Of a stretch of 64,000 bases of DNA, positions 26,479-38,639 are shown one piece after another; positions within the stretch are counted from its first letter, which is position 1, and each line of letters begins with the position of its first letter. Below the pieces are notes generated by a model that was not told where the DNA came from, did not search any database, and saw only the letters and a list, made by a program, of their open reading frames with translations. The position numbers and the translations under genes were made by a program. The DNA comes from Gemmatimonadales bacterium (lineage in GTDB: Bacteria; Gemmatimonadota; Gemmatimonadetes; Gemmatimonadales; GWC2-71-9): positions 13,085 through 77,084 of the forward strand of contig DASYCE010000016.1 of the NCBI GenBank assembly GCA_036500345.1, written 5' to 3'.

Positions 26479-27321
26479 TCAGGGCCATCGTTGCTTCGCA
26501 AGGACGTCCCGTCGCTCTCCCCAGAGCCAGATTAGGAACTCGGTCATTTCCGGCACGCTTGACTTCCCGGTGCTCGCAGCAATCTGATGGTCAACGATGC
26601 TAACGCGCTCAAATGCCTTTAGCATCGCCGTCTTCATCGGGTTCAAGATTCTGTATATCGACCAGATGGCTCGCGGCGCTGCCCAGCGCTGCAACTGCGG
26701 CAATCGAACCAATTCCTCTAGTGATAGTTGCTGTTGATCGAGGCCGTGAACGATGCCTCCCATAAAGGTGCCAGCAACGCCAGCAAATTCAGCGGCTCTT
26801 TCCTGGATAAGCGCGATCTTGCCTGGCTCCATCTCGTCGTCAACGATGCTGCTCAGCAATCGATTCCACACCGAAAGCGGGTCAGTAACATTCTGCTGCA
26901 ACGTGAGTGCATCCAGATTGTAGTACCGAGTCGTCTTTGCGTATTGACTCAAGAACTCCAAGATCTTACGCTCGCGGGACGCGGTTTGAAGGGGTGCCAA
27001 TGTTGCTGAGATGTCAAGATGATCCTTCGCGGCGAGAGCGTCTATCAAAGTCACAAGGTCGTGGCCCAAGCCGCGGAGGTCTTCGCGGCTGGGCGCGTTG
27101 AGCTGATGATCCGCCATGTAATCGAAAATGAAAGCAAGTTTCAGCAACCGTTCCATTCCCACACTTACAAGGAGAAAGCCAGAGTAATATTTCCCCTTCT
27201 CGCCTATGCTTGCATTCCGCAGGGATGTGAGCCCCGTTGCCAAAGTCGACTCGATTAGAAAGGCTTCCTGTTGTATTAGGTGCCACGTTGGCGTGAACCA
27301 ATCACCTCTCAGCATATTCAT
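26479..27321 (-). CDS. hypothetical protein, HEPN-like
   Basis: GMERLLKL...LGHDL..L helical pattern typical of HEPN-fold proteins; follows the RM gene. Confidence 0.55.
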   Translation of the reverse strand: MNMLRGDWFTPTWHLIQQEAFLIESTLATGLTSLRNASIGEKGKYYSGFLLVSVGMERLLKLAFIFDYMADHQLNAPSREDLRGLGHDLVTLIDALAAKDHLDISATLAPLQTASRERKILEFLSQYAKTTRYYNLDALTLQQNVTDPLSVWNRLLSSIVDDEMEPGKIALIQERAAEFAGVAGTFMGGIVHGLDQQQLSLEELVRLPQLQRWAAPRAIWSIYRILNPMKTAMLKAFERVSIVDHQIAASTGKSSVPEMTEFLIWLWGERRDVLAKQRWP

Positions 27322-27414
27322 GACGGGATGGCGAACTGAGCAAGAATTGTTTCCATTCGCCGATCTCGACTTGCAACTTGGGATCTGATCGTGGAGGCTA
27401 GCGGCCTAGGACAT

Positions 27415-29988
27415 TCAGATCTGAACACTGGAGTCGCGCTCATTGTCATCGGTACGACCCTCAAGTTTCCGCGCAATATCCTGTACCCGATTGCGAAGCT
27501 TCACCCGCATTGAGATTGTCTCGCGGGTCTCGTCACCAATTTGCTTCCGCACAGCCAAGGAGCGCGGCAGTGGCAGCACGATCTCATGCACTCGACGGCC
27601 CAATGTGTCGATGATGTCCTGGGTGAATTGCTTCGCGCGAATCTGACGCATGACAATCGATGTGTTCAGGCACGCAAGCAGGAGCCAGGGGTCGAGGTCC
27701 TTTGGCTTCAGGACTCGCAATCGATAGATGTGACTTTGGTAGAGCATTGGAAGATCACTATCAGTTACAATGGCCGTCGTACCAATCAAGTACGTGCCAT
27801 CACGTACCAATAGGATGTCTCCGGCCGCTACCTCTGCCTTGCGCTTCTCTGACTCGTAGATCGAGCGGCTCACACCATGCTTGAAGTCTGCCTTGATTTC
27901 CCAGTTTGATAGATCTGATGTTCGAATGAACGGAATGCGCCCAGTTCCGTAGGCCATCTTGCCAATCTCGGTGCCTGTCTCGACGGCAAGAATTCTCGCA
28001 TCGACCAAATTCCCCACCGTCACTAGGTCATGAGTCTTGGACAGCTGTTGCAGTGCCGCCTCGATCTCCGGATCATAGTATTGCGGCACGAGGATGCGGT
28101 TGCGTACATCGGTGGATGGCATCTTGAAGCTGAGGTGATCCACCGCACCCATCTTACCCTTTAAGAACGCCTGATACCGAGCCGCGACCGTTGGCACTTC
28201 GTCAAGTAGCACCATTCTTCCGGATGGATCCCGCCGATATGTCGGATTGCCGCGCGAGTCGTGACCGCACCACTTCACCGCGCCAAAGAACATCGAGTGA
28301 GTCTTCCGAGGCTCGGTCTTCTCGAGTACCATGACAGCGACCTTCGTATGCGTGCCGCTCTTGCCGCTCGTCTTGAAGAGTGACTCCGGCATAGTGACGA
28401 TTGCTCGGATCGTCGTCCGCTCCATTAGATAGTTGATCACGTACTCATACGACGGATTTCCGAGAATGCTTTCAGGCATGACAATACCAAGGCGGCCACC
28501 CACTACCAGGAGCTGAAGACAGCGCTCCAAGAATAGGATGTGCGGCGCTTGCTCGTCACGCAACTTGTCTGACTTCGAGATCGTTTGTGACTTCTTATCC
28601 TTCGACCACTTATACCCGAGTTCGTACTGAGCGAGCACCTGTGCACCCTTCACTGGAATCTTCGACCCGAACGGCGGATTGGTCATTACAACATTGAAGC
28701 GGCCCAGCCTGACCCGGTCCCGCGCATCGACTCTCCACTCGTCCGGTCGCATAAGCGCATTTTCGCAAAACACACCACCGCGGCCGTCACCGATGATCGC
28801 CATGTAGGCTTTGGTCACCTTCGCTAGAAACGAGTCCTTGTCTAGTCCGCGAAAACACCTCGACGCCAGTTCTCGCTTCTTCCGGTCAAGGATGACCTCG
28901 GACCATTCCTTTTTCTTGCCCTCACGTTCGAGCTTACCCCACACATGTTCCAGCGCAGCAATTAGGAACCCGCCTGAACCACAGGCCGGGTCAATCAGCA
29001 GATCGCCTGGTTCTGGATCGATCATATCTACGATGAGCTTGATGACGTTGCGAGGTGTGAAAAATTGTCCCTCAGCTCCTCGCAGCGCTGGGCCGATGAA
29101 GACCTCGAATGCGTCTCCCACGGCATCTCGATCCGCATCGATGATGCAGTAAGTCTGAAGTTCCCCTACGACGTACATCAGACTGGCAGCATCCAGCGTC
29201 ACCGCATCCTTCGAGGTGAAGACATCGCTGTACTCACGCTTAACCTTGAACTCAAAAGTCTCGACTATGCGCTTGCGCACATCCTTCGCAGTTTCGTCCA
29301 CGCCACAGCGAAAGGATACCATTTCGTCCGGTGCGGTGTTGATCTCATCGTAGATCTTGCAAAAGAGGAGGTTGATGATCTCCTGTGCCAGCGATTCATC
29401 CCGGGTGATGCCGGTCGTATTGCCTGCGAGATGGTTCCTGATGTCACGAAACACGGCCTTTAGATTGGAAGGCTTCTTGAGCTCGCGACGGCAGTAGAGT
29501 CCGATGTCCTCGACACGTTGACCGTACCGCGGAATGTTCGGCAACTCTTGATAAGTCCGGCGCCCGCTGGCGTGGTGTACCTTTCGGATGTAGGCGTGCT
29601 CGCTACCGTTGAACCAGACGCCAATCTCCGCGGTGCTCATATCAAGGTACAATTTCAGCTGAGCCAGGCCCTCCTTGCGCCGTGGTCGCTTGCACTCGAC
29701 CACCATTTGAAGTTCGTCCTCTAGTCGGTTGTTGCTCGAGAAGACAGCAATGTCGATGGGGAATGTCTTCTTGTCGTCAGAAGGACTCTTCCGCACGCGA
29801 TACTGTGGCCTAGTCTGGATATGCGCCTTGGGATACCCGTAGTCGGCCACGAGGCGCTTCGCGAACACCTGCACAGCATTGATCTCTTCGGGAGTTGGGC
29901 TAACGGCGACACCGCTAATGTAGTCCTCAACAGCATCGGTGTCCGTAGGCGCAAGAACATGCGCAGCATTCGCACCGCGTCGAGCCAC
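27415..29988 (-). CDS. fused restriction endonuclease/N6-adenine methyltransferase/TRD (type IIG-like)
   Basis: N-terminal PIDIAVF...VVECK PD-(D/E)xK; GQFFTP, DPACGSGGFL, NPPF; C-terminal IPFIRTSD..GDILL TRD-like segment. Confidence 0.9.
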   Translation of the reverse strand: MARRGANAAHVLAPTDTDAVEDYISGVAVSPTPEEINAVQVFAKRLVADYGYPKAHIQTRPQYRVRKSPSDDKKTFPIDIAVFSSNNRLEDELQMVVECKRPRRKEGLAQLKLYLDMSTAEIGVWFNGSEHAYIRKVHHASGRRTYQELPNIPRYGQRVEDIGLYCRRELKKPSNLKAVFRDIRNHLAGNTTGITRDESLAQEIINLLFCKIYDEINTAPDEMVSFRCGVDETAKDVRKRIVETFEFKVKREYSDVFTSKDAVTLDAASLMYVVGELQTYCIIDADRDAVGDAFEVFIGPALRGAEGQFFTPRNVIKLIVDMIDPEPGDLLIDPACGSGGFLIAALEHVWGKLEREGKKKEWSEVILDRKKRELASRCFRGLDKDSFLAKVTKAYMAIIGDGRGGVFCENALMRPDEWRVDARDRVRLGRFNVVMTNPPFGSKIPVKGAQVLAQYELGYKWSKDKKSQTISKSDKLRDEQAPHILFLERCLQLLVVGGRLGIVMPESILGNPSYEYVINYLMERTTIRAIVTMPESLFKTSGKSGTHTKVAVMVLEKTEPRKTHSMFFGAVKWCGHDSRGNPTYRRDPSGRMVLLDEVPTVAARYQAFLKGKMGAVDHLSFKMPSTDVRNRILVPQYYDPEIEAALQQLSKTHDLVTVGNLVDARILAVETGTEIGKMAYGTGRIPFIRTSDLSNWEIKADFKHGVSRSIYESEKRKAEVAAGDILLVRDGTYLIGTTAIVTDSDLPMLYQSHIYRLRVLKPKDLDPWLLLACLNTSIVMRQIRAKQFTQDIIDTLGRRVHEIVLPLPRSLAVRKQIGDETRETISMRVKLRNRVQDIARKLEGRTDDNERDSSVQI

Positions 29989-30205
29989 TGTTCCCTCGTG
30001 TCTTGGCGAAGTGATTGGCAGGCTTGAAGATAGATCGGAATTTCTAATGGAATGTAAGCGGGGACTACTGCCAGCGCATCCCCCTCCAGCGCCGCTTCAA
30101 GAGTGGACAGAGAAGCCGGCTAATCGAGCGCCGCGCGATTCGCGGGTCCCAGCCGCAATCTTGCAGTAGCAGCAACGTCGGGCACGCGGCGAGTTCGAAA
30201 CTCGG

Positions 30206-30646
30206 TCACCTGGCCAGTGGCAATGTCCTTTGTTTGGCCAAAGCGTAAACGCCAATAGCGGCTGCCACCAACATCAGCCCCGCAAATAGCTGCGGACTCG
30301 AACGCTGACCGTTCGCCATGAAGTTCGCGAAGTGCTCGCAGTTATTCCCAAAGAGATCATAAAGCGGGTTGCACTCAGCCTCGCGAAGCCGCGCACGCGC
30401 GCCAACCTCGTCAACGATTTTGCCAATGATCTTCCAGTTGGCCCGGGACTCGTCGAGCCACTGCGACCTGAGCTGCGGCGGCGCCTGATCGACCACGACT
30501 GGACGCCAAGGTTCAGCCTCAGCGAGCGACAGCACGTTGCCAATGTCGAGCACACCGAAATGCTTCACGACCTTCTGCGGATTTTCTTGTTCAACCAGGT
30601 ACAAGCCGTTAGGAACTATCTGTCCGCTGAGTGCGCAATAGGGCAT
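30206..30646 (-). CDS. LRAT/NlpC-P60-like acyltransferase family protein
   Basis: KHFGV, YDLFGNNCEHFAN, C-terminal TM helix. Confidence 0.75.
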   Translation of the reverse strand: MPYCALSGQIVPNGLYLVEQENPQKVVKHFGVLDIGNVLSLAEAEPWRPVVVDQAPPQLRSQWLDESRANWKIIGKIVDEVGARARLREAECNPLYDLFGNNCEHFANFMANGQRSSPQLFAGLMLVAAAIGVYALAKQRTLPLAR

Positions 30647-30959: not shown

Positions 30960-32441
30960 CTACGCTGGTCTATCAGCGGCCCGCCGCACGGTCCCCAACC
31001 CAGATAGCGCAGCGCCAGCTTTTCGGCGAGCTTCCACCGCGCGGTCCCGGATCTTCGGAGAGGGCAGATACTCAGGGATTAGCGACGGATCGGAAATCAA
31101 TCGGCGCACAGTAACTGAGTTCACCGTCACGTCCACCAACGAGGTATCGAACTGGGACCCTCGACCTTTGTTGAGTTCGGCCAAGACGACATCGAGCGAT
31201 AGAGCGTTGCGGTAAGGACGGTTCGTCGTCATCGCGTCGATAGTGTCCGCGATCGTGATAATCCTAGCGCCGAGCGGAATCGCCTCACCGGAAACTTGGT
31301 CCGGGTAACCTCGGCCGTCCCATCGCTCATGGTGATGCCGGACGCAGGAGACAACGTACCCTTGGAACCGCGAGAACAGGCCGACTAGGTCCGCACTCTT
31401 TGCAGAGTGGGTCTTCATGATGGCCCACTCCTCTTCAGTCAGCTTACCCTCCTTTTGAAGGAGGGGAGCAAACTCTGCGTGGATCTTTCCGACGTCATGC
31501 AGCAGCGCTGCGTTTTCGATCTCTTCGACTTGTTCGGGCGTCAATCCAAGATCAGTTGCGATCGCGCGCGATAGGCCGCATACGCGCCTTGAATGACCTG
31601 ACGTGTATGGATCACGGGCTTCGATTGCTTTCACCATCATTGCAAGCTGTTCTCGAACATTCAACTCGAGTTGGTCGTACGCCCCATCGAGCTCTCCGTA
31701 TAGATCTTGGAGGTTGTTGAGCTTCCCATAGATGTGCCTGAACCCAAGCAGCGGCAATGCCAAGGCTAGAAAGGCAAATCGCTCCAGTCCGCTTGCGCTG
31801 TTAGTCCGGACAAACACGCCTGCCACGAGCAGCGCAAGCATGCTTGCGGCGATATCGTACCCCAACACCCACATCGTATTGGACCGCCATGTGCGCAAAA
31901 CCGGCCTGTCGTTCGCAAGCGCGACGACCGTGCTGACGAGAAGGGAGTTCGCAACAAAATAGATCAGCGCCGCCACCAAGAAGGCGCCGATCTGGACAAG
32001 CGCAGCGTTGAAAACAGCCGGATGACCGGGCACCGCAGGCAACAGGAATTGCGGCGGATGCTGACCACCGAGCAGGTAGTACACCGTGAACGTGAGACCT
32101 ACTGAGATGCTACGTTCGGCAACGTTGAACGCAAGCCGCAAGGGAGAGTCTCGCTCCACAATCTTGGCGATTGCCTTTGCCAATGCCGCGATGAGGGCGC
32201 CCAAGAATGCACCCAGAACTAGGCCAACGGCGAGATGGAACACAAACACCAACGAGCCGGTCAGACCGCCAGCCTTATTGTGTGTACGAGACAATTCAAG
32301 GAGACATCCGACAAACAGGAAGCTGAAGACTGCCCACGCGTCGAAACCTGGTCGTGGCAGAACGCTGGTAACTCCAAGCACCAGCGCTGCAGCGACAACG
32401 ACACTGAACACGTAAATCCGAACAGCCTTCGGGAACGTCAT
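30960..32441 (-). CDS. multi-pass membrane HD-GYP c-di-GMP phosphodiesterase
   Basis: About 7-8 N-terminal TM helices; GHSRRV, LLHDVGK, HHERWDGRGYP, DAMTTNRPYR; start taken at ATG 32441. Confidence 0.92.
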   Translation of the reverse strand: MTFPKAVRIYVFSVVVAAALVLGVTSVLPRPGFDAWAVFSFLFVGCLLELSRTHNKAGGLTGSLVFVFHLAVGLVLGAFLGALIAALAKAIAKIVERDSPLRLAFNVAERSISVGLTFTVYYLLGGQHPPQFLLPAVPGHPAVFNAALVQIGAFLVAALIYFVANSLLVSTVVALANDRPVLRTWRSNTMWVLGYDIAASMLALLVAGVFVRTNSASGLERFAFLALALPLLGFRHIYGKLNNLQDLYGELDGAYDQLELNVREQLAMMVKAIEARDPYTSGHSRRVCGLSRAIATDLGLTPEQVEEIENAALLHDVGKIHAEFAPLLQKEGKLTEEEWAIMKTHSAKSADLVGLFSRFQGYVVSCVRHHHERWDGRGYPDQVSGEAIPLGARIITIADTIDAMTTNRPYRNALSLDVVLAELNKGRGSQFDTSLVDVTVNSVTVRRLISDPSLIPEYLPSPKIRDRAVEARRKAGAALSGLGTVRRAADRPA

Positions 32442-32473
32442 ATAAAGTGGGAGGGAAAACCCACGATCAATCA

Positions 32474-32548
32474 TCAGCCCCAGCCCTGCGTCTCCGCGTT
32501 GAACAAGCCCTCGACAAAATCGAGAGCAGCGGCCAGCCACTCTAGCAT
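32474..32548 (-). CDS. small 24-aa peptide MLEWLAAALDFVEGLFNAETQGWG (not in ORF track)
   Basis: Strong RBS GGAGGTGA just before the ATG, double TGA stop, 32 bp upstream of the HD-GYP start. Confidence 0.7.
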   Translation of the reverse strand: MLEWLAAALDFVEGLFNAETQGWG

Positions 32549-32759
32549 TTGCGTCACCTCCCGTCCTACTGCCAATGTCCTTCGACGAGTGGCAAACCCC
32601 GCTATGGTTCACCGGACGCTCCGCTGTATACAGCCGCTCACTTCGCTCAAAGACAGATCTCTGGGATCTCCCCCCCGTTATTCCTTTCGCGCTAATCGTT
32701 GACCTGCATCAACCACATGACCTTGTGCTTCTACTCTATCTCGCTGCGCCGAGCACCGC

Positions 32760-33497
32760 TCAACGCTTGTGCTGCATCGCCCAGCGGTTCGTCGCGTCAA
32801 GCACCGCATACACCGCCGCGTGCTCCGGACTCTCCCGCATTTCCGCCGTCCCCATCAGCAGCCGCGAATCACGCGACCCGCTCGCCAGCACGCCCACCAT
32901 CGCGAACGACCGGTCGAACAACTCCACCGCCTGCGCCCCCTCCAGCGCCAGCGACTGCGCATCGAACAACTTCCCCAGCGCAATCACCGCCGCCCGCGCC
33001 GCCGTCTCCATCCGGTTCCGCTGCGTGTCGGGCCCTTCCTCGATCACCGTCTCAGCATGATCACCAACCGCCAGCGTCACCGTCGCCGTCACCCGCCGCG
33101 ACCGCGGCACCGTGGCAATCGACAGATCCTCGAACAGCACCACTCGCTGTGCCGCGCGCTCGCGCACCGCGCCGAGATCGAGGGCCTGCAACGGCTTCAC
33201 ATCCGCCGTCGGCGCCACCGAGATCTTGCGGTGATCGACCTTGAGTCCCAGGTGCGCCAGCAACGCACTCTCGACGTTGCGGACCACCTGCTTCGGATTC
33301 TGTCCGGCGTGCGCGAGGATGTGGATCTCGCTCACCTCGCCCAGGGGTGTCGTCACCACCCGGGCCGAGAGAATCCCCTCGAGTGAAGTGAGAAGGTTCT
33401 CCGCCTTGCGGACCCCCCACGGGTCGGCGCTGGCATCGACAGGCGCGCCACCCGGCCGCGAGGCCGAACCATCATAGAAATGCGGTGATGCAGTCAC
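32760..33497 (-). CDS. conserved-looking hypothetical two-domain protein
   Basis: SARVV...EIHIL...PKQVVRNVESAL...DHRKISVA N-domain; C-domain ends AVLDATNR; host-like codon usage. Confidence 0.8.
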   Translation of the reverse strand: MTASPHFYDGSASRPGGAPVDASADPWGVRKAENLLTSLEGILSARVVTTPLGEVSEIHILAHAGQNPKQVVRNVESALLAHLGLKVDHRKISVAPTADVKPLQALDLGAVRERAAQRVVLFEDLSIATVPRSRRVTATVTLAVGDHAETVIEEGPDTQRNRMETAARAAVIALGKLFDAQSLALEGAQAVELFDRSFAMVGVLASGSRDSRLLMGTAEMRESPEHAAVYAVLDATNRWAMQHKR

Positions 33498-33529
33498 GGC
33501 GTGTCCCTTCCAGAGAACGTCGTCAATCC

Positions 33530-35218
33530 CTAGGCGATGTTGTTGCGACCGGCGGCCTTGGCCAGGTACAGCGCCCTATCCGCCTGTTCCAACAACGCTC
33601 CTTCATTCGGCAGCGACGGGTCGAACTCGGCGACCCCGATACTCACGGTGATCTGCCCCGAGAGGAAACCCAGCCGCCGCCCCGACTCTTCCACCCCTTC
33701 CCGCACCGCGTCGGCCACCCGCAACGCACCGGCCCGGTCGGTCCTCGTCAACAACGCCACGAATTCGTCGCCGCCATATCGCGCCGCCATGTCGGTGGCG
33801 CGGATCGTCCGGCGCATCTCGTCGGCCACCACCCGCAACACCAGGTTGCCGCGCTCGTGCCCGTAGCGGTCGTTCAGCTCCTTCAACCGGTCGAGATCGA
33901 GGAAGAGCACCGCGAACGAATCGCCGCTGCGCTTGCTCCGCTCCATCTCGTGCGACAACCGCTGCTGCAGCGAGCGATAACTCGCCAACCCCGTCAGCGC
34001 ATCGGTGCTCGCGTCGCGCGACGCGTCGTCGGCCCGCTTGCTGAGCCACGGCACGCACTGCTTGAGCGATGCGCGCCCGAGTGCAGCAGCCTGCGCGAAG
34101 CGATGACAGGTCGGATAGCCGCACGCCCGGCAATCCCACGGCTTCCCGTTCGGCCCCGTCCCGATCGCCTCGAGGATCGCCCGCACCGCCACCGCGTCGG
34201 CGACAGTGCGATTGGTGTTGAACGGGAAGACCGCCGTGACCGATACTCCATCACCGTCTTCATTCACCACCGGAACGCGACTCCTCGCCGGTTCGTACTG
34301 CTGCACCAGCATCCGCCGCCGGAAGAGATCGTCGGCCGGCCCCGCCGCCGGATGCGCCAGCGCGCCGGCGTGGGACTGCAAGTCGACGAAGCCGAGATCG
34401 ATGTGATCGTGACCCACCGCGCGCGCCAGTGCCGGCAGCGTGTCGAGGCCACGAACCGCGAGGAGCCTCCGCCCCTTCGACGATCCAGACACCACCATTT
34501 CGAGCGCCAGACCGCCGGCAACCGAGAGATGGCGCCGCGTTTCGGGCGGCAACCGGGAGAAGGTCCGCGGCATCGCTTCGGGCCGCACTTCCCTCAATGC
34601 AAAGAGCTGCTCCAGATCGACGAAAGTCAGCGTAGCGTCAAGTTCTTTGACAGTTCCGGCCGTGCTGACCCCCGCATAGACCACCGGGAGCGATTCACCG
34701 TGACGGCTTCGCAGGAATCGAGCCTCGGCGACGCTCGGCGTCGTGACAGGTGCCAGATAGGGAACGAGCTCGGGATAATTGGCGGTAATGGTGGCCACGA
34801 CGACCGGATCGGTCGAGCGGACGAGGGTCCCCCAGTCGGGATCTTCCCACAACCTGAGGTATTCCTGCGCCACAAGTTCTTCGCCAATGACCCCCCGGGA
34901 GACGTGGCGGAAGCCGGCATCGTAGCAGGCGTTGACCAGCTGTTCGGGAGTCGCCGGATGAAAATGCGCCACCGCCTCCGGTGCCAGGATCAGGGCACCA
35001 TTTCCCGCCTCGGCGATGGCGATCGCGCGCTCGACCGCACCGGTGGCGGTGATCGCCCCGTGCGGACATGCGGGGATGCACTCGCCACACTTGATGCAGT
35101 TCTCCTCCACCACCTCGACGACGTGCGCCTCCGGCGGGAGGGCGATCGCGTCGGTGGGACAGACACGGACGCACGCCAGGCAAGCGACGCATCGAGTTTC
35201 GTCAACGGCGAGACGCAC
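33530..35218 (-). CDS. diguanylate cyclase with 2[4Fe-4S] ferredoxin, degenerate [FeFe]-hydrogenase-like and FeS domains
   Basis: CVACLACVRVCP, CIKCGECIPACP, DCRACGYPTC, RATD I-site, RYGGDEF. Confidence 0.9.
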   Translation of the reverse strand: MRLAVDETRCVACLACVRVCPTDAIALPPEAHVVEVVEENCIKCGECIPACPHGAITATGAVERAIAIAEAGNGALILAPEAVAHFHPATPEQLVNACYDAGFRHVSRGVIGEELVAQEYLRLWEDPDWGTLVRSTDPVVVATITANYPELVPYLAPVTTPSVAEARFLRSRHGESLPVVYAGVSTAGTVKELDATLTFVDLEQLFALREVRPEAMPRTFSRLPPETRRHLSVAGGLALEMVVSGSSKGRRLLAVRGLDTLPALARAVGHDHIDLGFVDLQSHAGALAHPAAGPADDLFRRRMLVQQYEPARSRVPVVNEDGDGVSVTAVFPFNTNRTVADAVAVRAILEAIGTGPNGKPWDCRACGYPTCHRFAQAAALGRASLKQCVPWLSKRADDASRDASTDALTGLASYRSLQQRLSHEMERSKRSGDSFAVLFLDLDRLKELNDRYGHERGNLVLRVVADEMRRTIRATDMAARYGGDEFVALLTRTDRAGALRVADAVREGVEESGRRLGFLSGQITVSIGVAEFDPSLPNEGALLEQADRALYLAKAAGRNNIA

Positions 35219-35397: not shown

Positions 35398-35604
35398 ATG
35401 AATCGCGCCACGGCAGTGCAGCTGGAAGTTCAGCGACGCCTTACCGCCGCGGAGCGGCTGGAAATCACCGCCCAGATGTGCGATGCGATGCGGACCCTCG
35501 TCGCTGCCGGGATCCGGATGAGGAACCCGGGGTGGGGTGAGGACGAGGTGCGGCACGAACTGCTGCGGATCTACGAGGCGCTGGCACCGGAAACTGCGGG
35601 TTAG
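35398..35604 (+). CDS. small helical hypothetical protein (type often paired with nucleotidyltransferases)
   Basis: Q....RRLT..ERL.....M.......AGIR.RNP pattern. Confidence 0.6.
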   Translation: MNRATAVQLEVQRRLTAAERLEITAQMCDAMRTLVAAGIRMRNPGWGEDEVRHELLRIYEALAPETAG

Positions 35605-36428
35605 GCCTCGTCCTTTGGCAAACGTCCTTCGCAGGCTTCGAGGAACAGGCGTCGCACCTCCTGCTTCTCAGCAGACAGCAGCTCTCGTTTCAGTACCGCT
35701 CTGCTACCGGCGAGGAGCCGCGCATCTCGATCGCGAGGGATGCCGCCGCCGCCGCGAATCGCTTCGATGAGGCCCCGCAACTCTCCCTCAGGCACCTCAA
35801 AAGCCGCCCTGCGGGCCATGGAAGCGAGGGTGGTATCGCTGGCAGTGACCAGTGGATCAGCTATCAGGGGCCGGTTTGGTGTTAGTGCATCCCTGGGCTT
35901 GCAACTGAGAAACGACGAAACGTCATCAGCGTGCCACTCGTGGCAAGTATCTGCCTCCTGGAGCAGGAAGAGCGACTGACTGCCGCGAGAGGGCTTGATC
36001 CCAACCAAGTGAACGCGAACTCCAAACTCCTGTGCTTGTTGGACCCCTACACGCAAATCCTCGTCTCCCGACAACAACACCGCATCGGACATGGCTCGAT
36101 TACGCGCAAGATTGATCATGTCGGTCACGATCAGCGAATCGACTCCCTTTTGTTCGCCGACACTGTTGACGAAGCCAAGGCGTACCTTGACGCCGTGTAG
36201 GTGGGCCAGAGCTATATGCTGTGAAGTTGGTCCTGTTGACGTCCCATCGTACCAGTACACCCGAAGAATTGGGACGCCGGAAATCTTCTCGGCGAATTCC
36301 TGAAACGCCGCGACGACTCGTTCATGATCGAGGCCAACCTCGCCCCGCTGAAGCTTTTTCCCATGCAGGAGCACCGATCCTTGCGCGAACAAATATCCGG
36401 CATCCACAAATACAGCTACGCGATCCAT
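35601..36428 (-). CDS. NYN domain (PIN-like) ribonuclease
   Basis: VFVDAGY, RVYWYDG, EQKGVDSLIVTDM, LLSGDEDL, LLQEAD. Confidence 0.92.
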   Translation of the reverse strand: MDRVAVFVDAGYLFAQGSVLLHGKKLQRGEVGLDHERVVAAFQEFAEKISGVPILRVYWYDGTSTGPTSQHIALAHLHGVKVRLGFVNSVGEQKGVDSLIVTDMINLARNRAMSDAVLLSGDEDLRVGVQQAQEFGVRVHLVGIKPSRGSQSLFLLQEADTCHEWHADDVSSFLSCKPRDALTPNRPLIADPLVTASDTTLASMARRAAFEVPEGELRGLIEAIRGGGGIPRDRDARLLAGSRAVLKRELLSAEKQEVRRLFLEACEGRLPKDEA

Positions 36429-36609: not shown

Positions 36610-38151
36610 TCAGCCGAGCTCATACTCCTTGAGCTTCCGATAGAGGGTCCGCTCCCCGATGCCGAGGACCTGGGCCGCCTTCCTACGGTTCCCCCGATGC
36701 TCGGTCAGGACCGCTTCGATCGCCGCCCGCTCGATCTCGGCCATCGTCATTCCCGGCCGGTAGATCACGGTCGTTGGCGGCGGCTCCTCCTCCGCTGCCG
36801 AAACCGGGCCAACCGCCGCGATCGGCAGCGCCACGGGAATCGTCGGGTCGGTGACCTCGATCAGCTGCACTTCGTGATGGCGCTCGTCGATCCGCCGCCG
36901 CAACTCCTCCAGTTGTGACCGCAGCTCCATCAGCGACCTGAGGATGAACTCGAACTCGGCGCCGCCCAGCGGCCGCTCGCCGAGTTGCGTGTGTGTGCCG
37001 ATCCGCATCGGGAGGAGCGACGGTGTCCCTTCGAGGACATCGGGCGGGATGTCGCCGGCCTGAATCTCGTGCACCGGCGCCAGCACCACCATCGATTCGA
37101 TCAGGTTGCGCAGCTGGCGCACATTCCCCGGCCACGGCGCCTGCACCAGCCGCTGCATCGCGTCGGCGGCGATCCCGGGGAAGGTGCGCTCGTGCTGCGC
37201 GGTGAATTCGCGGACGAAGCGCTTGACGAGGAGCGGAATGTCGTCGCGCCGCTCGCGCAGCGGCGGGAGATAGATCGAGAGGACGTTGAGGCGATAGAAG
37301 AGATCGTCGCGGAACTCGCCGCTCGCGACGCGATCCTTGAGCGGACGGTTGGTCGCTGCAACAACGCGCACATCGACCTTGATTGGTTGCACGCCGCCGA
37401 CGCGGAAGAACGAACGGGTCTCGAGAACCCGCAGCAGCTTGACCTGCACGCTGGCGGGGATCTCGCCGATCTCGTCGAGGAAAATCGTCCCTGTGTCGGC
37501 GAGCTCGAAGCGGCCGAGGCGGCGTTCGGCGGCACCGGTGAAGGCACCCTTCTCATGACCGAAGAGTTCGCTTTCGAGGAGCGTCTCGGGGAGTGCCGCG
37601 CAGTTGACCGCGATGAACGGGCGGCCGCGGCGCGGCGAGAGATCGTGAATTCCCTTCGCGACGAGTTCCTTGCCGGTGCCCGATTCGCCCTGGATCAGCA
37701 CCGTGCTCGACACCGGCGCCATCTGCTCGATCTTGACGAGGACTTCCTGGATCGCGGCGCTTTCGCCGAAGATTCCGGTGTGGCGCTGGAGATCGCGGCG
37801 ATCGACCATCCGGTGCACCGTTGCGGCGAGTTCGTCGATCGCGACCGGCTTGACGAGGATCTCGGTTGCGGCGAGGTGGACGGCGCGACTGGTGTTCTCG
37901 GAGTCGGTCGATTCGAGCAGTGCGAGGACGGCGACTTCGTGATCGCGCGCGTAGGTGGCGAGTCCCGCGGTCGACGATTCGTGGACGCCGCCGGTGATCA
38001 CCAGGAGTGATGGGTGATCGCGGCGAATGGCGGCGCGCGCTTCGTCGAGCGACGCGGCGACGGCAGAGGCGATGCCGGAGGCGCCGAGGGCGCGGTCGAG
38101 CGGGACCGCGGTTTCGAGATCGGCGAGGGTGATGACGACTTTGGCAGTCAT
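36610..38151 (-). CDS. sigma-54-dependent transcriptional activator (NtrC-like) with atypical receiver
   Basis: GESGTGKE, ESELFGHEKGAFTGA, FLDEIGE, WPGNVRQL, C-terminal Fis HTH. Confidence 0.93.
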   Translation of the reverse strand: MTAKVVITLADLETAVPLDRALGASGIASAVAASLDEARAAIRRDHPSLLVITGGVHESSTAGLATYARDHEVAVLALLESTDSENTSRAVHLAATEILVKPVAIDELAATVHRMVDRRDLQRHTGIFGESAAIQEVLVKIEQMAPVSSTVLIQGESGTGKELVAKGIHDLSPRRGRPFIAVNCAALPETLLESELFGHEKGAFTGAAERRLGRFELADTGTIFLDEIGEIPASVQVKLLRVLETRSFFRVGGVQPIKVDVRVVAATNRPLKDRVASGEFRDDLFYRLNVLSIYLPPLRERRDDIPLLVKRFVREFTAQHERTFPGIAADAMQRLVQAPWPGNVRQLRNLIESMVVLAPVHEIQAGDIPPDVLEGTPSLLPMRIGTHTQLGERPLGGAEFEFILRSLMELRSQLEELRRRIDERHHEVQLIEVTDPTIPVALPIAAVGPVSAAEEEPPPTTVIYRPGMTMAEIERAAIEAVLTEHRGNRRKAAQVLGIGERTLYRKLKEYELG

Positions 38152-38639
38152 TGATGTGCCGTATCGCCGTGCAGGATGGCGGCGAGGTGATCGACAAGCG
38201 GTGCGAGGGTGGTGAGACCGTCGCGAACGGCGGAGGTCGACCCGGGAAGATTGACGATCAGGGTGCGGCCGCGGATCCCGGCGATCCCGCGCGACAGTGC
38301 GGCGCGCGGCGTTTCGCGGAGTCCGGTGGCGCGGATCGCTTCGGCGATCCCGGGAGCTTCGCGGTCGATCACGGCGCGGGTCGCCTCGGGGGTGTGGTCG
38401 CGCGGAGCGAGCCCGGTGCCGCCGGTGGTGATGATCAGGTCGGCGATGTCGCTGTCGGCCCACTGCATTAAGTGGTTGCTGATCTCGAGCGATTCATCAG
38501 GAACGAGGGCGCGGGCGGTCAATTCGTGATGCTGCTCGGCGATCCAGTCCACGATCGCGTGGCCAGAGCGGTCTTCGCGTTCGCCGCGGGCGCCGGCGTC
38601 GGAGATGGTGAGGACGGCGATCCTGGTTGGTGCTCCCAT
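38148..38639 (-). CDS. mog: molybdopterin adenylyltransferase MogA/MoaB family
   Basis: VLTISD, DRSG, TTGGTGLAPRD.TPEAT, NLPGS. Confidence 0.9.
   Translation of the reverse strand: MGAPTRIAVLTISDAGARGEREDRSGHAIVDWIAEQHHELTARALVPDESLEISNHLMQWADSDIADLIITTGGTGLAPRDHTPEATRAVIDREAPGIAEAIRATGLRETPRAALSRGIAGIRGRTLIVNLPGSTSAVRDGLTTLAPLVDHLAAILHGDTAHQ

Follow-up and report, generated by a model that had tools for sequence, protein, structure and literature searches.

The window, a 64,000-nucleotide stretch of a Gemmatimonadales genome, contains on its minus strand a genuine 24-codon micro-gene, MLEWLAAALDFVEGLFNAETQGWG (32474..32548), which is under purifying selection and lies immediately in front of a gene for a predicted membrane cyclic di-GMP (c-di-GMP) phosphodiesterase that combines an MASE9 sensor with an HD-GYP output domain. 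Since the tail residues of the encoded peptide change along with the sensor domain among close relatives, the peptide may well be the matched signal of the MASE9 sensor.

The micro-gene and its genomic context

The micro-gene encodes an amphipathic head (codons 1-18/20) and a short variable tail of the form E-T-x-x-W-x. Its Shine-Dalgarno sequence, GGAGGTGA (32554..32561, minus strand), is situated 5 nt upstream of the ATG and is predicted to be paired within an RNA junction (see below), while 32 nt separate the end of the micro-gene from the HD-GYP ATG (32441). Among 90 loci collected through the upstream 32760 gene, one of which (L001) is the window itself, 87 possess a Shine-Dalgarno sequence and start codon at this position, the other three being contigs that stop within 150 nt. 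The micro-ORF is complete in 82 of the 90, and 77 of these 82 peptides (after correction of the reading for L002) have a Trp among their final six residues; the few alleles without the terminal Trp include L069, L071 and L089. The 33 distinct 24-codon alleles give a pN/pS of 0.26, with variation greatest at third positions. The first-pass annotation had proposed exactly such an unannotated gene, with a ribosome-binding site and a Trp near the peptide C-terminus, and had suggested looking for it at homologous loci; these observations bear it out. It had also considered that the HD-GYP protein might start upstream at 32612, but this start is not kept in relatives, since the extended reading frame is interrupted in two of them, L002 (90 aa) and L003 (10 aa).

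A MASE9-HD-GYP gene follows the micro-gene in all 80 Gemmatimonadota loci with sufficient downstream DNA, and the module is present also in Bacillota, Armatimonadota, Actinomycetota and Chloroflexota. The Bacillota peptides conform to the pattern MK-hydrophobic-GGA-xxxW and have signal-peptide-like heads, whereas the head of the window peptide is acidic, unlike a Sec signal. Searches of 43 peptides with NCBIfam models recovered no known precursor family; the best match (E 0.027) was a sub-threshold one to the lactococcin G-beta bacteriocin model, which picked up 3 of the 43. No paper on the module was found in a literature search.

The adjacent gene (30960..32441, minus strand) codes for a 493-aa membrane protein in which Pfam detects MASE9 (PF20972, aa 39-202; 29 bits against a cut-off of 24.3) and HD_5. 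Its catalytic motifs, LLHDVGK, HHERWDGRGYP, ADTIDA and RPYR, which represent HD, HHExxDGxGYP, the metal Asp and RxY[K/R] respectively, are intact here and in relatives, and c-di-GMP hydrolysis is the activity expected of a protein of this class; the sensor part is hypervariable. Known MASE9-HD-GYP phosphodiesterases, which share this domain pair and the catalytic motifs, are Thermotoga maritima TM1467 and Streptomyces venezuelae HdgA (10.1101/2021.11.05.467447). In the accessible part of that account, MASE9 is predicted to have 8 transmembrane helices and its ligand is described as unidentified and thought to bind within the membrane; the same part makes no mention of an upstream micro-gene, an RNA leader or a 32760-type protein. 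The GC content of the peptide/HD-GYP segment (0.56-0.58) is lower than that of the upstream genes (0.65-0.70), as noted in the first-pass annotation, and across the genus mean GC3 is 0.63-0.65 for the HD-GYP gene versus 0.87 for the 32760 gene. The low-GC zone of the window runs on downstream to ~26400.

Two further genes lie upstream in the same orientation. The Fe-S/hydrogenase-like GGDEF protein (33530..35218, minus strand; Pfam Fer4, Fe_hyd_lg_C, FeS and GGDEF), previously implied to belong to a c-di-GMP unit, is absent from all 20 loci of other families and present in 1 of 82 loci of a wider set, and is thus a lineage-specific neighbor rather than a core part of the module. The intervening gene (32760..33497, minus strand) encodes a conserved unnamed 245-aa protein whose family numbers 2112 representatives at 50% identity. 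It has no match in Pfam, its Atlas matches are unnamed clusters only, and its single-sequence structure model is uninformative (pLDDT 58). Its N-terminal domain shows fold matches to adenylation C-domains, CDF CTDs and BolA (Z 7-9), while the C-terminal, LeuA-regulatory-like domain matches the LiCMS regulatory domain (Z 10.1, rmsd 3.0, 110 aa), a fold match that does not imply function. As the fold matches listed include no protease, the processing half of the processing or adaptor role once suggested for this protein is not sustained; a candidate regulator acting on the leader, perhaps an RNA-binding protein of KH/BolA type, appears more likely.

A structured RNA enclosing the micro-gene

The micro-gene is embedded in a covarying leader RNA that earlier annotation overlooked. 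The leader core (32546..32650, minus strand) comprises AGCG repeats, a three-way junction predicted to bury the peptide's ribosome site, and a covarying hairpin (32591-32613) whose loop contains AGCG. A long-range closing helix, with a 5' arm at 32656..32677 and a 3' arm at 32448..32468 in the gap that separates the peptide stop from the HD-GYP start (both minus strand), encloses the complete micro-gene. The leader core displays two-sided change at 8 of 18 pairs, with 95.9% of cells paired versus 38-54% when slid; it is this covariation that indicates structure, because the folding energy of the whole 261-nt domain is by itself not unusual (z -1.4). The abundance of G-U pairs points to the helix-flanked unit being RNA, and its single copy in the genome (second covariance-model match at E 0.25) rules out a multi-copy or MITE reading.

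In 76 of 78 loci the best duplex has a 3' arm that starts within 7 nt of the peptide stop. The helix is specific to its cognate arms (-36.3 vs -25.3 kcal/mol), which are re-matched following swaps, and the polarity of the arms flips between families. Some families have a G-rich, Shine-Dalgarno-like run inside the 3' arm; the HD-GYP Shine-Dalgarno sequence does not lie within the arm in genus g1, and in Bacillota, for example at L181 and L210, the corresponding Shine-Dalgarno-like site is outside the helix. Rfam covariance models identified no family and no riboswitch, the sole match (mir-5345, E 3.5) being a chance one elsewhere. The f1-trained RNA model recovered no more than 23 of 68 distant loci, two of which are from Bacillota, with weak E-values. 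A promoter scan gave nothing above chance, and the 3' arm coincides in part with a weak terminator-like hairpin (6 such hairpins found; 4.3 +/- 2.0 in shuffles).

Co-variation of the peptide tail and the sensor

We examined co-variation, which the first-pass annotation had suggested as a check, in 31 loci of a single genus. The last four residues of the peptide correlate with the sensor (rho 0.54, or 0.53 with 32760-gene distance removed), as against 0.14 with the 32760 gene and 0.05 with the HD domain; the first 18 residues correlate with the 32760 gene at 0.35 and with the leader at 0.59. The Mantel p values of such comparisons are inflated by kin. The ten loci with VTW tails group together in the sensor tree with 100/100 support, a clade that the 32760-gene data reject (AU p 6e-66). 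The match is imperfect, with one sensor clade mixing QSWV and QTWV tails and the tail requiring 12 changes on the sensor tree versus 17 on the 32760 tree. Genome pairs that differ little in RpoB (G010/G271, 0.3%; G029/G030, 1.7%; G015/G271, 2.0%; G010/G015, 2.1%) have sensors that are 43-50% different and also differ in their tails. In the 15 of 31 genomes with a usable rpoB, including one odd long-branch RpoB (G002), the sensor correlates with RpoB at rho 0.02 and the 32760 gene at 0.42.

The DNA of close relatives is near-identical up to peptide codon 19-20, and identity breaks at codon 20-21. Such exchange of tail and sensor with a DNA break inside the peptide gene resembles the pherotype swapping of peptide signaling systems. 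Within receptor types the tail is itself conserved (pN/pS of 0.17 and 0.0). Sensor distance correlates with amino-acid changes in the tail (0.48), versus 0.07 for the intervening spacer and 0.10 for synonymous tail changes, a control weakened by possible saturation of both. Tail and sensor are separated by ~45 nt, and their correlation peaks at sensor aa 1-100 (0.53-0.55) and stands at 0.25-0.34 at aa 81-260, a fall that is the pattern expected from linkage alone. Taken together, tail and sensor in this genus change jointly between close relatives and against the species tree, though linkage can produce a similar match.

Co-folding, another suggested check, was carried out with a relative's natural uncut 35-aa peptide and its sensor, and gave a score of 0.41 against 0.00 for the best of 3 controls; the runs share at least 91% of contacts, with a partner pLDDT of at least 57. 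The mark used is reached by 116 of 157 solved pairs and 2 of 215 mismatched pairs, and at scores of 0.60 or below by only 18 solved pairs plus both mismatches. The predicted complex therefore lends weak support to the peptide-MASE9 pairing.

Functional interpretation

We give about an even chance to the proposal that the tail is a variant-specific ligand of the adjacent MASE9 domain, and that tail and sensor constitute an exchangeable pair controlling c-di-GMP breakdown. The micro-gene product would be a precursor bearing the Trp-containing tail. Its head might carry the peptide into the membrane, as the signal-peptide-like appearance of the Bacillota heads suggests, and the tail would dock in MASE9 inside the membrane and switch the phosphodiesterase, perhaps on, lowering c-di-GMP. 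Matched alleles could then make the response specific to kin or dependent on density. The 32760 protein might bind the AGCG repeats and open the buried ribosome site, while the closing helix could turn the peptide message into a stable RNA with a dosage of its own, and possibly couple HD-GYP translation to that of the peptide. The swappable peptide-receptor pair of the earlier annotation is thus retained on the strength of the conserved micro-ORF, the tail/sensor co-variation and, weakly, the co-fold, with its side claims about the GGDEF and 32760 proteins set aside. The full scheme, namely a multi-phylum peptide signaling system wired to c-di-GMP, with an RNA-enclosed micro-gene, a 5-6-residue Trp-ended signal, strain-specific MASE9 readers and a leader-opening two-domain protein, is advanced more tentatively, at somewhat less than even likelihood.

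Small membrane proteins such as MgrB and SafA tune sensors like PhoQ, and resemble the present case in pairing a tiny hydrophobic protein with a membrane sensor; their partners are kinases, and exchangeable matched alleles are, to our knowledge, not known for them. By analogy, an intact membrane micro-protein could tune the MASE9-HD-GYP protein in the same cell, tail and sensor co-evolving as an interface with no intercellular message. The amphipathic, often acidic head would suit such a role, as would the use of the uncut peptide in the co-fold (weakly) and ligand binding within the membrane, as proposed for MASE9 in the accessible part of its description (10.1101/2021.11.05.467447). It is also consistent with the failure to find a dedicated exporter or protease, which tells against the signal reading: no AgrB, ComQ or ABC exporter was found beside the module, and DUF5317, which follows the HD-GYP gene in two Bacillota loci examined, occurs in 0 of 151 Gemmatimonadota genomes. 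We nevertheless regard this reading as rather unlikely, as it leaves unexplained both the deeply divergent tail/sensor types among genomes 0.3-2% apart in RpoB and the signal-peptide-like Bacillota heads.

Alternatively, the micro-gene might be a cis-acting leader whose translation to the stop codon opens up the long-range helix, so making the HD-GYP start accessible, the tail merely hitchhiking with the sensor. The position of the 3' arm just after the stop, the cognate-specific and re-matched helix, the Shine-Dalgarno-like run in some arms and the decay of the tail-sensor correlation along the HD-GYP gene are all in line with this. A pure leader would, however, need neither the near-invariant Trp nor tail conservation specific to the receptor type, the flipping polarity of the arms means that they are no fixed Shine-Dalgarno mask, and the Bacillota sites outside the helix are at odds with it; we consider it improbable as the sole explanation, while translational coupling and a ligand role can coexist. 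Messages of type I toxins likewise combine a hydrophobic micro-ORF, a buried Shine-Dalgarno sequence and paired ends, raising the idea of a toxin-like or contact-acting membrane peptide with the MASE9 protein as cognate immunity or damage sensor, to which the sub-threshold lactococcin G-beta matches might be added. The failure to find an antisense RNA family, the single copy per genome, the intact signaling output domain of the partner and the fixed context conserved across phyla make this highly improbable.

The ligand reading finds its closest parallels in the agr, comQXP and comCDE pherotypes, in which the precursor is encoded next to the receptor, its C-terminal residues co-evolve with the receptor and variants are decoupled from the species tree. 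From the part of the source available, Rap-Phr and NprR-NprX are similarly marked by a short precursor beside the receptor gene, a few C-terminal residues co-evolving with the receptor and variants decoupled from the species tree (PMC5199041). The module differs from agr, comQXP and Rap-Phr in that its receptor is a MASE9-HD-GYP protein instead of an RRNPP protein or histidine kinase, its predicted output is c-di-GMP hydrolysis, it has no adjacent AgrB, ComQ or ABC exporter, its peptide gene lies inside a structured RNA and it occurs in a diderm phylum. The distinct receptor class, together with the lack of any NCBIfam precursor match better than E 0.027, argues against membership in the agr, comQXP or RRNPP families. 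In Clostridioides difficile a class I riboswitch controls small membrane-associated proteins downstream of c-di-GMP; as far as the accessible part of that work goes, this system is similar in joining such proteins, a structured leader and the c-di-GMP network, and differs in that here there is no Rfam riboswitch and the peptide gene is upstream of the enzyme (PMC13724677).

MASE9 is an orphan sensor, and few inputs of membrane c-di-GMP enzymes have been identified. The tail represents a synthesizable candidate MASE9 ligand for which cognate and non-cognate pairs exist in nature, and the peptide-sensor question can thus be put to a direct test using purified protein and 6-mer peptides. If the proposal is correct, the leader would represent a new cis-regulatory RNA family and the unnamed 32760 family would gain a likely function. 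Peptide pherotype signaling would gain a new class of receptor and a new output, and would reach into abundant, little-studied soil bacteria, with kin-specific peptide signaling in the diderm Gemmatimonadota and a ligand for the orphan MASE9 domain.

The micro-gene, its neighbours and their range

The 24-codon ORF at 32474-32548 on the minus strand of the window, the ribosome-binding site (SD) preceding it, the 32-nt gap to the downstream gene (30960..32441, minus strand) and the neighbouring genes all match their first-pass annotation. Pfam searches likewise recover MASE9 and HD_5 in the downstream protein, and Fe-S/hydrogenase-like and GGDEF domains in the far-upstream one (33530-35218, minus strand), a GGDEF cyclase fused to a ferredoxin, an [FeFe]-hydrogenase-like domain and an FeS module; the peptide and the 245-aa product of the gene between them (32760..33497, minus strand; the 32760 protein) have no Pfam match. 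The lower GC bias of the peptide/HD-GYP segment relative to the upstream genes is also confirmed, and at third positions it is general across the genus.

The 32760 gene is present in 56 of 61 relatives and, phylum-wide, in 211 of 301 Gemmatimonadota genomes (a tally that takes in one unpublished genome, G197); the sources of its protein's close homologues label them Gemmatimonadales. Downstream of this gene we read 90 loci, a non-random selection of better matches and longer contigs. An HD-GYP gene is found in all 80 loci having more than 600 nt downstream. The small ORF expected at the homologous position is conserved: SD and start codon are present in 87 of the 90 loci, and a complete ORF, of 14–35 aa in nearly all, in 82 (among which L002 is mis-called by the search pattern and L031 reads through to 79 aa). 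Tryptophan lies within the final six residues of 76 of the 82 complete peptides, and pN/pS across 33 distinct 24-codon alleles is 0.26 (0.20 in the head, 0.69 in the tail). The alternative that the HD-GYP gene really starts upstream at 32612 was rejected, as the nearest relatives do not keep the extension intact. In L069 and L071, whose tails have no Trp, ~870 nt separate the 32760 gene from the leader (the structured RNA ahead of the micro-gene) and small ORF; in L086 and L088 the Trp is internal and the tail short or extended.

The same gene order recurs in Bacillota, Armatimonadota, Actinomycetota and Chloroflexota (two plasmid matches and at least 80 genome-scan loci; taxon labels as deposited, with two assembled genomes for Actinomycetota and one for Chloroflexota). 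Among the matches listed, 73 loci extend far enough to be judged. Of these, 67 have an HD-GYP gene no more than 3.5 kb away, and strict filtering retains a hydrophobic small ORF with an SD in 45 of the 67, two being doubtful; HD-GYP is absent from six of the 73, and therefore the 32760 gene can occur apart from the module. Bacillota peptides resemble a signal peptide with a Trp-ended five-residue tail, and Armatimonadota include small ORFs that are longer or have a weak SD. In seven Armatimonadota loci (L227, L238, L242, L246, L247, L260, L196) a signal-like head precedes longer, proline-rich tails (38-47 aa). DUF5317 follows HD-GYP in both Bacillota loci checked and was not found among 151 Gemmatimonadota genomes.

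Upstream of the cyclase, lower-GC DNA encodes an NYN-domain protein (PF01936, putative RNase; 35601-36428). A sigma-54 activator that carries a receiver-like domain (36610-38463) is found a few kb upstream in the window, and one of this kind immediately precedes the 32760 homologue in L049 (342-1931); such activators are a possible transcriptional input to the module. Downstream of HD-GYP, a low-GC island (26479-30646) encodes an 857-aa methyltransferase-like protein that carries an NPPF motif, a 280-aa protein without assignment and an LRAT-like NlpC/P60 protein of 146 aa (PF04970, E 5e-5, slightly below the cut-off). The island occupies the place of a convergent gene following HD-GYP in all three relatives read (L058:3087-4412, L068:3102-4595, L049:4367-7201), which encodes helical-repeat sequence, plus P-loop-like sequence in L049.

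The enclosing RNA and the 32760 protein

Folding of 45 leaders (RNAalifold) yields a three-way junction in which the SD is paired, with 95.9% of cells paired versus 38-54% when slid. Two-sided change occurs in 8 of its 18 pairs, mostly within an AGCG-loop hairpin, and the SD-proximal helices are less proven because variation there is little or one-sided. A second, long-range helix pairs a stretch ~110-150 nt before the ATG with one just past the stop. In 78 of 87 loci (nine were left out as cut, too short or frameshifted) its energy is -36.3 kcal/mol for cognate versus -25.3 kcal/mol for non-cognate arms; z is below -2 in 73, cognate pairing is best in 15, and G/C polarity flips from family to family. 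The helix is kept outside the phylum (-26.6 vs -16.5; z < -2 in 31 of 43), and AGCG is retained even in AT-rich genomes. The RNA is single-copy in the genome and has no match in Rfam. In three near-identical genomes (L126, L146 and L131 of G271, G010 and G015) the 5' arms differ, each fitting its own 3' arm, although leader core and peptide head, which lie between them, hardly differ; the arm differences suggest that arms are quickly re-matched following each swap, or that a second crossover took place.

In a structure model of the 32760 protein (52-row alignment, pLDDT 83) the N domain resembles adenylation-enzyme C-domains, CDF C-terminal domains and BolA (Z 7-9), and the C domain resembles LeuA/citramalate-synthase regulatory domains (Z 10.1; Foldseek E 2e-6); Pfam LeuA_dimer matches a Bacillota homologue. 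No protease is among the fold matches listed for the model, which argues against the processing role once suggested. From position and fold, the protein may bind the AGCG repeats.

Co-variation of tail and sensor

The anticipated peptide/receptor co-variation is found in the tail. The same-genus set comprises 38 loci, with the small ORF in view in 34 and all three genes sufficient in 31; mean distances are 0.44 for the sensor (the MASE9-containing part), 0.15 for the HD domain and 0.27 for the 32760 protein. Across the 31 loci the tail (the last four peptide residues) tracks the sensor (rho 0.54; partial 0.53; one genus, with kinship inflating p), most strongly in the sensor's nearest 100 residues, and the head (the first 18) tracks the leader and the 32760 gene; in alignments the break falls at peptide codon 20-21. 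Tails are conserved within receptor types. Hitchhiking controls correlate with the sensor at 0.07 (spacer) and 0.10 (synonymous tail), both possibly blunted by saturation, versus 0.48 for the non-synonymous tail. In the sensor tree the VTW-tail group forms a single clade with 100/100 support; the 32760 data reject that clade (AU p 6e-66) in a test set up after both trees had been viewed. Against RpoB in 15 genomes, retaining the odd long branch G002, the 32760 gene correlates (0.42), but neither the sensor (0.02) nor the tail (-0.17) does. The rpoB of the G002 bin, which holds L149, is distant from its genus, possibly on a contaminating contig. Four pairs within ~2% in RpoB have sensors 43-50% different and different tails; G010 and G025 are 8% apart in RpoB, yet have a common tail, with a sensor difference of 25%.

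Fifteen contigs end within the micro-gene (L010, L020, L034, L040, L046, L092-L094, L097-L102, L104), L091-L104 having been chosen because their contigs end 240-435 nt beyond the 32760 gene. Contig depth in run X2 piles up over window positions 32518-32618, and a relative's contig matches leader and peptide, after which ~96 letters differ. Contig ends and pile-up fit an assembly fork at the point where conserved sequence gives way to variable sequence, a fork that may conceal the module in MAGs. Two locus versions occur in G029 (L142, L123; tails QSWV and VTWI) and in G060 (contigs C51 and C127), representing either two strains per bin or genuine duplication.

Possible mechanism and known systems

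The most likely reading, with roughly an even chance of being correct, is that the tail is a variant-specific ligand of MASE9 and that tail and sensor would work as a peptide pherotype cassette with c-di-GMP as output. Co-folding of the natural 35-aa peptide and the sensor of one relative is consistent with the proposed binding in exceeding its controls (0.41; best control 0.00), with contacts agreeing to at least 91% and partner pLDDT of at least 57; the tool's own rating is weak. In the calibration, which excludes own alignments, 116 of 157 solved pairs attained the co-fold mark, as did 2 of 215 mismatched ones; among those attaining it, 18 solved pairs and both mismatches scored at or below 0.60. 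This binding step would be common to a rather doubtful alternative, in which the peptide is a micro-protein partner of MASE9-HD-GYP inside the same cell. A pure cis leader fits less well and is unlikely. A toxin/immunity pair of peptide and MASE9 also fits less well, and we consider it improbable.

The receptor belongs to the MASE9-HD-GYP family, whose ligand is given as unknown in 10.1101/2021.11.05.467447. Tail/sensor co-evolution resembles that of Rap-Phr (PMC5199041), and the arrangement differs from the system in PMC13724677; membership in agr/comQXP/RRNPP fails on receptor type. Our literature search, with most subscription journals outside its coverage, found no paper on the module, which is real, conserved and apparently undescribed in print. 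It would represent a form of peptide-receptor signalling whose parts are unrelated to those of known cassettes.
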